DNA of 13,541 bases from Myxococcales bacterium (lineage in GTDB: Bacteria > Myxococcota > Myxococcia > Myxococcales > Anaeromyxobacteraceae): contig JBBQEB010000105.1 in assembly GCA_038320275.1 (NCBI GenBank), positions 1-13,541 of the forward strand. The letters are read 5' to 3'. A program made the position numbers and the translations under genes. Below, piece after piece: positions 953 through 9,219 of the stretch. Below the pieces are notes generated by a model. That model did no database searches, was not told the origin of the DNA, and saw only the letters and a program-made list of their open reading frames with translations. The number at the start of each line of letters is the position of its first letter. Position 1 is the first letter of the stretch.

Positions 953-1897
953 ATGCGTGCACGCCGACAACGCGCCCTTCGCCTCGCCTCCCTGGCGCTG
1001 CTCGCGCTGGCGGTGCTCGCCATCCCCGCCGCCGCGCAGGCCTGGGCGCCTCTCGCCCACCTCAGCTTCTCCACCCAGGCCATGGTGGCGGTCGGCGCCG
1101 CCCCCGCCGCCACCCGCGAGCTCCTCCAGGAATTCGCGCACGACTTCCTCTACGGCTCGCTCGCCGCCGACATCGTCGTCGGCAAGAACCTCGCCCGGTA
1201 CGTCCACCATTGTCACAACTGGCGCGTCGGCTTCGACGTCCAGCGCGCAGCGCGCACAGGGGCCGAGCGGGCCTTCGCGCTGGGCATCCTGGCACACCTC
1301 GCCGCCGACACCATCGCCCACAACTACTTCGTCCCGTACCAGACCGTCGCGTCCTTCCACCGCCCCCGCACCGGCCACCTCTACTGGGAGCTGCGCTATG
1401 ACCAGCGCATGGACCTCGGGCTGACCTGGATCGGCCGGGCCGTCTCCGACCGAAGCTGCCGCGGCCATGACGACTTCCTGTGCCGGAGCATGCCCCGCTC
1501 CTCGGTGCTCCCCTTCCCCCTCTCGCGCGGCCTGTTCGGCTCCATGCTGGCCTCGGCCCGGCACGCCCGCTTCCAGTCCGTCTCCCGCCTCGCGCTCGCC
1601 CGCCACCGTGCGCTCGTCCTCGACGACGATCTCGTCGCCGAGACGAACCGCCTCTCGGTAAGCGCCATCGTCGGCCTCCTGCACGAGGGCGAAGGCTGCC
1701 TCGCCGCCCGGGCCGATCCCACCGGCGCGCGCAACTTGCGCCTGGCTGCCCGGCTCCGGGGCTCGCTCCGGCGAAGCCACCGCCGCCTCCCGCTGGCGCT
1801 CGCCTCCGCCGTCACCCTGGAAGCCCGCGAGAGCTTCCGCCACGCCATCGCCGGGACGCTCGTCCTCCCGCGCGAGCTCGCGCGCCTGGCGGCGTAG
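953..1897 (+). CDS. Secreted zinc-dependent phospholipase C / S1-P1 nuclease-fold protein
   Basis: Signal peptide (basic MRARRQR, hydrophobic core, AQA) followed by mature N-terminal W-x4-H. Further candidate Zn ligands: [23 protein letters not shown]. Start ATG 953 preferred over 869. Confidence 0.8.
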
Positions 1898-1912: not shown

Positions 1913-2185
1913 CGAGCCACGGCGAGCCGGGGGTCCACGGAGGCACGTTGCGCAGCCGCGGCGCTCGCGGGCACATGGGCGCCGAGGCGCGCCACGCGTG
2001 CCTCGCCCACGCGGCCCACTGTCCGAGAGAGCGTGCCATCGACGACGCCTCCTCCACCAGAGCCGGTAGCGAGCGAGTTTGGGCCGCGTGGCACACGCGA
2101 GCACCCAGGCGCGCGCCCCGGCCACGCGCTCACCCGCTCCCGCGGCGGAGCCGGGCCGCAGGGGACCCCCAGCCGCCGGGGCGAT
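1913..2185 (+). repeat. Interrupted copy of a ~72-bp hairpin repeat (arms 1913-1959 and 2155-2185)
   Basis: 1913-1959 matches the reverse complement of 9173-9219 at 46/47 nt. 2155-2185 matches the reverse complement of 9148-9177 with 2 mismatches and 1 indel. Confidence 0.9.
1960..2154. other. ~195-bp self-complementary insert within the repeat (possible MITE-like element or structured ncRNA/ssDNA module)
   Basis: Flanked by direct GCCGC (1955-1959 / 2155-2159). Perfect 12-bp inverted repeat CCACGCGGCCCA 2007-2018 / 2080-2091. Additional nested pairings 1955-1961/2140-2146, 1967-1971/2133-2137, 1998-2006/2097-2104 (one bulge). Confidence 0.6.
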
Positions 2186-2206: not shown

Positions 2207-3430
2207 CTACCTCTCCTTCGGCCTCCGCTCCGCCAGCACCGGCGCCACCCAATCCAGGATGGCGTCCGCCACCTGGTCCTTCGTGCCCTCCAGCTTGGCG
2301 CGCTCGCCCGGCCCCACCAGCGTCACCCGGTTGCGCGCGCTCCCGAAGCCCGCGCCCGGCTTCCCCACCTCGTTCGCCACCACCAGGTCACAGCGCTTCG
2401 CCACGAGCTTCCTGCGCGCGTTCGCCACCACCGCGTCCGTCTCCGCCGCGAAGCCCACCAGGATCGGCGCGCGCTCGCGTCCCGCCCAGCGCTTGCCCAT
2501 GGCCGCCAGGATGTCCGGGGTGCGCGTCAGGACCAGCGGCTCGTCGTCGTCGGTCTTCTTTCGCTTGCTCGTCGCCGCCATCTTCGGCCGCCAGTCGGAG
2601 ACCGCCGCCGCCGCAACGAAGACGTCGAGGTCGTCCGCCGCGTCCTCCACCGCGCGCGCCATCTCCTCGGCCGTGACCACGCGCAGCGTGCGCAGGCCCG
2701 GCGGATCCGGGAGCTCCACCGGCCCCGAGATCAGCACCACCTCCGCCCCCCGCCGCGCCGCCGCCCGGGCCACCGCGTAGCCCATCCGGCCCGTCGACGG
2801 GTTGGAGAGGAAGCGCACCGGGTCGAGCGGCTCGCGCGTCGGGCCCGCCGTCACGACCACCTTCCTGCCCGCGAGGTCGCGCGGGCCCAGCAGACTCGCC
2901 GCCGCCGCCGCGATGTCGAGCGGGTCGGCCAGCCGTCCCTCCCCCACGTCGCCATCCGCGAGCTGCCCCGAGGCAGGCCCCACGAAGCTCCACCCGCGCC
3001 GGCCCAGCTCGCGCACGTTCTCCACCACGGCAGGGTTCCGCCACATGCGCGTGTTCATGGCCGGGGCCGCGAGGAGCGGGCAGGTGCAGGCGAGCGCAGT
3101 CGTCGTCACCGCGTCGTCCGCCATCCCCGCGCGCAGGCGCGCCAGCAGGTCCGCGGTGGCAGGAGCCACCACCAGGAGGTCGGCCGCGCGCGCGAGGGCC
3201 AGGTGGCCGTAGGTGCGATCCTCCTGCGGGTCGAGCAGCTCCACCAGCACCGGCGCGCCCGTGAGCGCCTGCAGCGTCAGCGGTCCCACGAACTTCGTCG
3301 CCGCGCGCGTCATCGCCACCCGCACCGTCGCGCCGCCCTTCACGAAGAGCCGGGCCACCTCGCAGGCCTTGTAAGCCGCGATGCCGCCCCCCACGCCCAG
3401 CACCACCGTGCGCCCGCCGAACTCGTTCAT
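2207..3430 (-). CDS. coaBC: Bifunctional phosphopantothenoylcysteine decarboxylase / phosphopantothenate-cysteine ligase
   Basis: GGIAAYKA, HLALARAAD, APATAD, PAMNTRMW, VTAGPTREPLDPVRFLSNPSTGRMG, AAAVSDWRP, VGFAAET, VVANEV; 407 aa. Confidence 0.97.
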   Translation of the reverse strand: MNEFGGRTVVLGVGGGIAAYKACEVARLFVKGGATVRVAMTRAATKFVGPLTLQALTGAPVLVELLDPQEDRTYGHLALARAADLLVVAPATADLLARLRAGMADDAVTTTALACTCPLLAAPAMNTRMWRNPAVVENVRELGRRGWSFVGPASGQLADGDVGEGRLADPLDIAAAAASLLGPRDLAGRKVVVTAGPTREPLDPVRFLSNPSTGRMGYAVARAAARRGAEVVLISGPVELPDPPGLRTLRVVTAEEMARAVEDAADDLDVFVAAAAVSDWRPKMAATSKRKKTDDDEPLVLTRTPDILAAMGKRWAGRERAPILVGFAAETDAVVANARRKLVAKRCDLVVANEVGKPGAGFGSARNRVTLVGPGERAKLEGTKDQVADAILDWVAPVLAERRPKER

Positions 3431-3563: not shown

Positions 3564-3602
3564 GTCTACAGCCTAGACAGGTGTCTAGCGGCGCGCTAAC
3601 CT
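3564..3602 (+). promoter_or_regulatory. hicAB promoter (TAGACA-N17-TAACCT) overlapped by palindromic candidate operator(s)
   Basis: -35 TAGACA 3574-3579, -10 TAACCT 3597-3602, 17-bp spacer. Inverted repeats CTAGACA-GG-TGTCTAG (3573-3588) and GTCTA-N5-TAGAC (3564-3578). Confidence 0.7.
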
Positions 3603-3609
3603 AGCTCTC

Positions 3610-3813
3610 GTGACGGCTCGAGAAGTGCTCCAGAACATCGCGTCGAAGGGTGGCGAGGTGCTTCGACGAAAGGGCTCGCACGTGCGCGTCCGTGTCGGCG
3701 AGTGCTTCTCCACCGTGCCGGATCACGGCTCGCGGGACATTCCCCCGGGCACGCTCCGCGCCATCGAGCGCGATCTGGAGCCGGCGCTTGGCAAGGGCTG
3801 GCTTCGCAGGTAG
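3610..3813 (+). CDS. hicA: Type II toxin HicA (dsRBD-fold mRNA interferase)
   Basis: 67 aa, basic; R-KGSH catalytic motif and VPDH-x3-DIPPGTLRAI; directly upstream of a hicB-like gene. Confidence 0.92.
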   Translation: MTAREVLQNIASKGGEVLRRKGSHVRVRVGECFSTVPDHGSRDIPPGTLRAIERDLEPALGKGWLRR

Positions 3814-3828
3814 CTGGAGGGTTTCACC

Positions 3829-4218
3829 ATGGGCAAGTACGCGGTCACCTACGAAAAGGATGAATCGGGCTGGTGGCAGGCCCGCCTGCATGGGGTCGCG
3901 GGCGTCCATAGCGACGGCCGGACGGTGTCCGACGCCCGCGCCCGCGTACGTGAGGCCCTGGCGCTTGCCCTCGGCGATGCCGAAGCCGAGCGCTCCGAGC
4001 TCGTCGATGAGGTGAAGCTGCCCACCGAAATTCGCCGGCTCGTGGCGCGGGCCACCAGCGCACGCGCACGCCTGGAGCAGGTCAAGGCCGAGGCCCAGGA
4101 GAGCACGGTCGAGGCGGTGAGGACGCTTCGAGCGACGCTCGGGCTCTCCCGGCGCGACATCGCCGACCTGCTCGGCATCTCTCACCAGCGCGTGCAGCAA
4201 CTCGCTCGCGGGCGGTAG
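3829..4218 (+). CDS. hicB: Type II antitoxin HicB with C-terminal helix-turn-helix
   Basis: N-terminal HicB-type segment (YAVTYEKDESGWW...GVHSDGRTVSDARARVREAL), C-terminal HTH (LSRRDIADLLGISHQRVQQL); GGAGG RBS upstream of ATG 3829. Confidence 0.88.
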   Translation: MGKYAVTYEKDESGWWQARLHGVAGVHSDGRTVSDARARVREALALALGDAEAERSELVDEVKLPTEIRRLVARATSARARLEQVKAEAQESTVEAVRTLRATLGLSRRDIADLLGISHQRVQQLARGR

Positions 4219-9147: not shown

Positions 9148-9219
9148 ATCGCCCCGGCGGCGAGGGCCCCCTGCGGCTGCGCAACGTGCCTCCGGGGACC
9201 CCCGGCTCGCCGTGGCTCG
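9148..9219 (-). repeat. Compact (uninterrupted) copy of the hairpin repeat
   Basis: Reverse complement equals the joined arms of 1913-2185. Internal stems 9158-9164/9206-9212 and 9162-9171/9194-9203. Confidence 0.9.

Follow-up and report, generated by a model that had tools for sequence, protein, structure and literature searches.

The window, the whole stretch of 13,541 nucleotides analysed here, is contig C105 of the source genome (G000; 4.1 Mb, 71.7% GC, 91% complete, 343 contigs). A gene for a Zn-dependent phospholipase-C-like protein (PLC-like; 953..1897, plus strand) and a coaBC-like gene named from its translation (2207..3430, minus strand) converge on a gap that holds a gene-less hairpin element of 273 nt (1913..2185, plus strand), hereafter a rod of subfamily A, which begins 15 nt past the PLC-like stop codon and ends 21 nt short of the coaBC stop codon. 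A second, 72-nt copy (9148..9219, minus strand) lies 18 nt beyond the stop codon of ald. Elsewhere in the window, a small two-gene module at 3600-4218, between coaBC and a membrane-protease gene, presumably resembles a HicAB-type toxin-antitoxin pair; Pfam gave HTH matches only for its second gene.

A sequence-only reading had treated the 72-nt hairpin as the basic element of an intergenic repeat family, occurring once empty and once filled by a separate 195-bp insert with a 5-bp target duplication, and had offered deletion between the GCCGC repeats as a second option. Its description of the two copies was confirmed by whole-genome BLAST, in which the reverse complement of 9148-9219 matched 1913-1959 at 46 of 47 nt (E 1e-16) and 2155-2185 at 28 of 31 nt (E 3e-4). 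GCCGC is present on both sides (1955-1959 and 2155-2159), the stretch between 1959 and 2160 measures 200 nt (195 without the repeat), and both copies do closely follow a stop codon.

Fold and conserved loops of the rod

Folding of the G000 copies returned each of them as a single unbranched rod folded back on itself. At its base the rod has a variable stem, above which follow a loop rich in G.A, a short bulge, a GNA/GNA internal loop, helices of 6-7, 10-13 and 10-12 bp, a CTG/TT loop, and a tip, conserved as CTGTYYGA..GCGAGTT, that is predicted to pair via tandem G.A before a variable apex. In the window copy, the most conserved module has its 5' strand at 1950..1960 (plus strand; GC, a GNA internal loop at 1952-1954, and one strand of a 6-bp helix at 1955-1960) and its 3' partner at 2141..2151 (plus strand; helix strand 2141-2146, a GGA loop at 2147-2149, and GC). 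The tip (2011..2087, plus strand) is closed by a covarying helix (2011-2018 with 2080-2087) followed by the CTG/TT internal loop, and its conserved plus-strand segments CTGTCCGAGAGAGCG (2019-2033) and TAGCGAGCGAGTT (2067-2079), for which tandem G.A pairs are predicted, accompany a variable apical hairpin.

The fold of the long copy was better than that of all 100 shuffled sequences (z -3.45), and that of the short copy was modest (z -2.15, with 5 of 200 shuffles equally good); z-scores across copies ranged from about -8 to +1, those of the C5 and C2a copies being weak. Over 13 copies, 31 named pairs were paired in 96.3% of cases and 15 of them showed double changes, whereas none of 500 shuffles reached the pairing or covariation score and slid controls stayed at or below 48%; this shuffle test is generous, since the pairs were taken from RNAalifold on the same alignment, with five tip pairs added by hand, and the copies are related. 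From 39 more divergent copies (52% mean column identity), RNAalifold recovered just two of the long helices. G.U pairs are scarce in the long helices (6 of about 335 cells), and the 5' internal loop is GGA, GCA, or GAA in 47 of 48 copies.

Copies in the source genome and the origin of the short form

BLAST, an iterated profile, and an exact motif scan returned the same eight full-length copies of about 270 nt in G000, in three subfamilies: A (contigs C105, C285, and C49), B (C34 and two copies on C2, C2a and C2b), and C (C5 and C53). A search with both arms of all eight copies found one short form, that of the window. The proposed gene-less intergenic repeat family was thereby upheld, with eight full-length copies and one short copy in this genome. 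The subfamily-A ends are sharp, CGAGCC...GGGCGAT being common to all three copies and to the short copy, and their flanking sequences are unrelated. Arm identity follows middle identity both among the eight copies (Mantel r=0.92, p=0.001) and among 39 copies drawn from several genomes (r=0.65, p=0.0005). The joined arms of C105 agree with the short copy at 69 of 73 positions and those of C285 at 67 of 72, compared with 46-50 of about 75 for the arms of subfamilies B and C; in effect, the short copy is a subfamily-A basal stem that lacks the 200 nt above it.

These comparisons bear directly on the proposal that the 72-nt hairpin is both basic element and target, into which a separate 195-nt element (the 200-nt middle) inserts at GCAGCCGC with a 5-bp duplication. 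GCCGC does flank the middle in C105 and C285, and true empty and filled elements exist in the host family (a 778-bp element and an IS110-family gene in genome G068). However, long copies outnumber the short one by eight to one, the middle was not found without its arms in G000, and arms and middle are co-inherited. The aligned GCCGC...GCCGC is exact in 2 of 39 copies, namely C105 and C285 (two of the eight in G000), so that the second GCCGC (2155..2159, plus strand) is conserved only in these two subfamily-A copies; 14 of the 39 have their own junction pentamer repeated close to the right junction. Moreover, the breakpoint splits the most conserved module: the left GCCGC (1955-1959) is part of the 5' strand 1955-1960, which pairs with 2141-2146 in a helix that keeps its outer pairs in all 39 copies and shows covariation at its two middle pairs in 13 and 18 of them. 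The partner strand of this module (2141..2151) sits within the supposed insert and is absent from the short copy. We therefore regard the nested-insertion proposal as largely refuted and extremely improbable: the empty/filled model with its second element and 5-bp target duplication was not supported, and the relationship is reversed, the long form being the element.

Deletion between the GCCGC repeats fits, and we conclude with high confidence that the short copy, which is nearest to the subfamily-A arms, was left behind by a deletion and is not an empty target site. It likely arose once from a subfamily-A rod, by a proposed slippage across the 5-bp microhomologies that the fold would have brought close, with the second GCCGC as the microhomology at the inferred junction. 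Next to C34 and C2b, ends of the element itself are repeated in tandem (50 bp x 2.9 and 51 bp x 2.8, respectively), which is consistent with the same instability. A search of sequencing runs listed no RNA run that carries the element. The joint between 1959 and 2160 was absent among 15 of the 19 joints listed in contigs of one DNA sequencing run. The empty/filled pattern that was originally flagged would thus be ordinary hairpin-driven deletion.

Distribution, genomic setting and search for a mobiliser

Comparison of orthologous gaps, which the sequence-only reading had suggested, showed that both window copies are absent from the same junctions in relatives of the genus. The gap between the PLC-like and coaBC genes measures 2, 3, 12, 74, and 120 bp in the five relatives in which both are adjacent, compared with 309 bp here, and in three other relatives of the genus the neighbour is a different one; the gap between ald and the sigma gene is 144-185 bp in four relatives and 204 bp here. 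Covariance-model matches were obtained in 6 of the 11 genus genomes, to which the model-based distribution refers, each at its own contig positions (150 candidates scored per genome). The G000 copies form six singletons and one pair; as assigned by hand, five of the eight lie in convergent gaps, one in a divergent gap, and one antisense between co-directional genes, with the eighth unassigned. Rod neighbours are varied housekeeping genes. Flank repeats were inconsistent, 2 of 15 copies sharing an 8-nt word and 13 sharing at most 6 nt, as in the background, the junctions being placed approximately. Taken together, the family very likely spreads within genomes.

Some junctions carry different rod subfamilies depending on the genome, namely those between Mur ligase and cytochrome c genes (L234 versus L277/L304) and between GT2 and GNAT genes (L290 versus L385). 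These could be hot spots of insertion or cases of long retention, and the few junctions with rods in more than one genome could thus mean that rods were retained, not inserted repeatedly. At G000:C285:756-954 (L021), the C285 rod adjoins two tRNA-like genes that stand in tandem on the opposite strand. Another repeat of G000, about 100 nt long and containing a GCGAGCGAAGCGAGC hairpin (e.g., C5:45056-45170, L024; 26 BLAST hits), forms a second family, one copy of which abuts the C5 rod.

Two genera of the host family have rods that are homologous or share the architecture, the second genus having same-architecture rods in at least 10 of 37 genomes, and a sister subfamily is present in public records titled Anaeromyxobacteraceae. 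These copies came from patterns and the covariance model; plain BLAST in 40 relatives gave weak short matches only. A loose tip pattern run on 301 genomes of the order stayed near its reversed control in most of them and served only as a lead to genus g8; the unpublished genome G204 supports none of the conclusions. The tip pattern itself matched 4 of 92 family genomes with zero control matches, as well as 40 stretches in GTDB and 78 in metagenomes; by a crude ORF call, 27 of the 40 GTDB stretches are intergenic, and about ten look like chance matches in genes. Many of the matched tips sit on top of long hairpins that are unrelated in sequence and come, according to record titles, from Patescibacteria, Thermodesulfobacteriota, Lachnospiraceae, Oscillospiraceae, Rhodothermales, Acidaminococcales, and Anaerovibrio. 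At two Lachnospiraceae loci (L052 and L071), a TwoAYGGAY motif lies about 250-400 bp from the tip-bearing rods on the opposite strand. The long-tip pattern had no match in IMG/VR, and the short tip TGTYYGAGCGNAGCGAGTT had at least 120. The element itself gave three short in-gene matches to plasmids and none to phages. The short tip is found upstream of the replication-initiation gene (rep) of a Vibrio filamentous phage, and its core at 1330-1344 of ColE1, a match that we take to lie within the mapped n'-pas. In L097, L129, L144, L172, and L187 the short tip has no long hairpin and is preceded by a fixed 11-nt leader; it lies intergenically in Firmicutes-like phages, in one case 30 bp past an integrase gene.

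In the second genus and in metagenome contigs, rods often stand back to back. A hand list of neighbouring rods within 2.5 kb of each other comprised 30 pairs, of which 29 were divergent (back to back), one tandem and none convergent; entries that looked like duplicates had been combined by eye, additional tandem copies in L384 and L267 did not count as pairs, and an automated orientation table, which mis-called some neighbours, was set aside. The typical spacing is 50-210 bp with no gene between. Other pairs bracket cargo: an SMI1/KNR4 gene (60% GC, compared with about 70% in its flanks), a methyltransferase, a 122-aa ORF, a 2-kb stretch with a trypsin-like gene, and, in G000 (C2), pepD. The genes outside this pepD block are adjacent in genome G006, and the block also holds an asparaginase gene beyond the pair. 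At L384:1950-3347 (G072:C9), an outward-facing array of rods (-,-,-,+,+) lies beside a parA-like gene, and the palindromes that follow its plus-strand rods are, we assume, parS-like.

The sequence-only reading had proposed to look for copies next to a RAYT/IS200-type transposase, tyrosine recombinase, or reverse transcriptase (RT); none of these was found as a recurring neighbour of the rods. Y1_Tnp had no match in the G000 assembly (91% complete, 343 contigs), and the 14 Y1_Tnp loci of the genus have no rod nearby. The five tyrosine recombinase, two RT, and one IS110 matches of G000 all lie on contigs without copies. No transposase, RT, or HUH protein recurred in a Pfam search of 184 neighbouring ORFs or in the top 40 clusters of 1943 ORF segments; nor did a nuclease or four-helix-bundle partner recur beside rods in the neighbour scans and clustering, which gave as single cases two unrelated integrases and one PD-(D/E)XK ORF. 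A candidate tip-targeting IS in one G068 rod was rejected, the 2.18-kb insertion being a separate element that lies at a rod in 1 of its 15 loci. G068 carries (e.g., at L426:1898-4073 and L449) a 778-bp palindromic element with 16-bp terminal inverted repeats. About a dozen copies of it are empty, and several others contain, always at one fixed site, an IS110-family element of 1.4 kb. This is a genuine empty/filled system, and one filled copy splits a rod at its tip.

The folded molecule, rival readings and related systems

The folded molecule is probably single-stranded DNA (ssDNA) rather than RNA. The 5' loop of the rods (GGA/GCA/GAA) resembles the DNA zipper, or G-zipper, which the available part of the source describes as unpaired bases between sheared G.A pairs (PMC11014236). 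All 25 scorable genus-g8 copies (17 of the 42 g8 copies being unscorable) have C-GNA-G in their tip hairpin, against a background of 10%, as do 7 of 11 type-E copies; as an apex it was seen in 0 of 8 G000 copies, 1 of 15 type-D, 0 of 5 type-H, and 0 of 9 type-F copies, and cUUCGg was counted in none of the tips scored. As the window's subfamilies have no GNA apex, the DNA argument for the window copy rests on the internal loops and on relatives. The short tip contains GCGNAGC, which in the accessible text of PMC13037366 is a DNA mini-hairpin, far less stable as RNA, at phage and plasmid priming sites. Among the matches listed, its free N is A in 41, T in 17, C in 9, and G in 6 of 73 distinct contexts, and the tip sits on long hairpins in 27 of 69 scorable contexts. 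Both orientations of the rod occur, the C285 copy and the short copy being antisense to both neighbours. Against ssDNA, tandem G.A pairs and GNA loops are also found in RNA.

We consider it unlikely that the rods instead act as RNA, in read-through transcripts as a terminator, stabiliser, or RNase III substrate, or as a TwoAYGGAY-like trans ncRNA, and spread by an RNA route. Such a role would account for the strong covariation and the five convergent gaps among the eight G000 copies, and TwoAYGGAY, as far as the available part of its description goes, likewise has divergent doublets, flanking repeats, and variable copy number (10.64898/2026.09.22.753630), besides adjoining tip-bearing hairpins at the two Lachnospiraceae loci. 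However, the rods have no Rfam match and few G.U pairs, some copies are antisense to both neighbours, the scored tips show GNA triloops and zero cUUCGg, and both RT genes of G000 lie on contigs other than those with copies. Equally doubtful, in our estimate, are self-priming ssDNA modules whose tip would be a single-strand initiation or primosome-loading signal and whose pairs would place one signal per strand around a cargo-capturing gap. The short-tip core upstream of the Vibrio phage replication gene and in ColE1 (1330-1344), GCGNAGC-type mini-hairpins at the phage G4 and RSF1010 priming sites (PMC13037366, in part), the location of ColE1 ssiA/n'-pas downstream of the origin (PMC3167613, in part), the excess of divergent over convergent pairs (29 and none of 30), and the bracketing of the SMI1/KNR4 gene, methyltransferase, 122-aa ORF, and pepD all favour such modules. 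Nevertheless, the base before the tip varies (T25, C21, G15, and A12 of 73, among the matches listed) and is not a fixed C, so that an invariant CTG primase site is lacking; most pairs are gene-free at 50-210 bp, and G000 has six singletons and one pair, with the C2 block extending to the asparaginase gene outside the pair. A classical MITE of a DDE transposase, in which the fold would be a by-product of long terminal inverted repeats, could explain the sharp subfamily-specific ends and the length of about 270 bp. It is nonetheless very improbable, because conservation over 39 copies is lowest in the terminal sequences while the internal mismatched loops are invariant, no consistent flanking direct repeat was seen in 15 copies, and the conserved features are strand-asymmetric.

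On balance, we lean towards the reading that the long copy is an intact gene-less intergenic rod, likely folded as ssDNA and moved in trans, and that the short copy is a one-off slippage deletion. The rod would extrude on transiently single-stranded DNA, such as the lagging-strand template, be recognised by its shape and G.A motifs, be cut, and then be pasted into gaps mostly near stop codons by a mobilising enzyme encoded elsewhere. It may also stall polymerase, which is proposed to give rise to both the deletion and the tandem end-duplications. More tentatively, the conserved loops and tip may be binding sites for a trans-acting ssDNA-processing enzyme, for example an HUH/Y1 nuclease or a tyrosine recombinase. 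A broader and improbable picture is of cross-phylum gene-less ssDNA rods whose tip is a replication signal shared with, or borrowed from, ssDNA phage and plasmid origins, and which are paired, capture genes, and would be moved by an enzyme so far tied to no repeat.

The intergenic DNA of bacteria is full of palindromic repeats that carry no genes, and in most cases both the molecule that folds and the enzyme that moves it have yet to be established. The rod family offers an unusually clean handle, in that mean column identity is about 52% yet a few G.A loops and one tip are fixed. Because the same tip is also seen on hairpins unrelated to the rods in several phyla, as well as close to the origins of ssDNA replicons, it provides a defined bait for pull-downs and priming assays, and the cargo-bearing back-to-back pairs suggest a testable route for small-gene traffic. 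The sequence-only reading could not match the element to a named REP/MITE family, and no Rfam match was obtained here: at the gathering score, Rfam 15 gave nothing on the rods in the window and 51 loci (1800-2300 also by E-value), with TwoAYGGAY and tRNA matches lying beside, not on, the hairpins. Flavo-1 and Acido-Lenti-1, searched under accessions that we take to be theirs, had no match over the cut-off in G000. No description of the element or its tip was found in the literature searched, which comprised few subscription papers and no supplements; supplements of structured-RNA surveys or preprints could hold a related motif. The parts of PMC2864571 and PMC4129139 that were available hold nothing specific to rods. 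Apparently, the family is an undescribed, structurally distinctive REP/REPIN-like repeat class with a cross-phylum tip.

Integron attC sites have RYYYAAC/GTTRRRY core sites at their ends and form cassette arrays. Like them, the rod would be a strand-specific ssDNA hairpin read by shape, and it tolerates variable sequence, and an attC-like ssDNA motif has been described (PMC8632094, in part). Unlike attC, the rod ends CGAGCC...GGGCGAT carry no core sites, there are no cassette arrays, and no integron integrase lies beside the copies. With REP, REPIN, and BIME sequences and their RAYT, which are extragenic hairpin-forming repeats (Bertels and Rainey, 2011; PMC3116915), the rods share, to judge from the available part of that work, being gene-less, extragenic, multi-copy, hairpin-forming, non-autonomous, patchy among relatives, and present in ordered tandem clusters. 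In contrast to a REPIN, which consists of two short (20-40 bp) inverted REP palindromes, the rod is a single imperfect unit of about 270 nt with invariant internal G.A loops, an asymmetric tip, and arms that are not self-palindromic; rod doublets are two whole rods back to back, and no RAYT was found in G000 or beside copies. TwoAYGGAY (RF01731) is likewise a multi-copy structured intergenic motif with a long basal stem and flanking repeats, and 68.4% of its doublets are divergent in the part of 10.64898/2026.09.22.753630 at hand; the rods, however, lack the two AYGGAY loops and an RF01731 match, are unbranched, and have near-exclusively divergent pairs. Thus, the family behaves like REP/REPIN yet differs in defining features from REP/REPIN, TwoAYGGAY, and attC, and does not show the conserved terminal inverted repeats of a MITE. 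The combination of a GNA mini-hairpin and a tandem-G.A tip appears, by sequence, similar to the ssi signals of the G4 origin, RSF1010 ssiA, and ColE1 n'-pas (PMC13037366 and PMC3167613, both in part), whereas the rods are chromosomal and multi-copy and mount the tip on a long rod.

The intrastrand-triplex repeats BoxC, PIT, and TM form triplexes of about 37-56 nt (Holder et al., 2015; PMC4666352) and, in the available part of that account, share with the rods a wide intergenic distribution, an ssDNA structure (a probable one in the rods), local instability, and the absence of both a strand bias and a linked transposase. Unlike BoxC and PIT, the window rod has by eye no mirror-repeat tail, which short-tip rods on phage contigs often have. 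In IMG/VR phage contigs (L133, L137, L118, L102, L100, L099, and others), short-tip rods often have a pyrimidine tract and another hairpin behind them, an arrangement that resembles triplex (PIT-like) tails.
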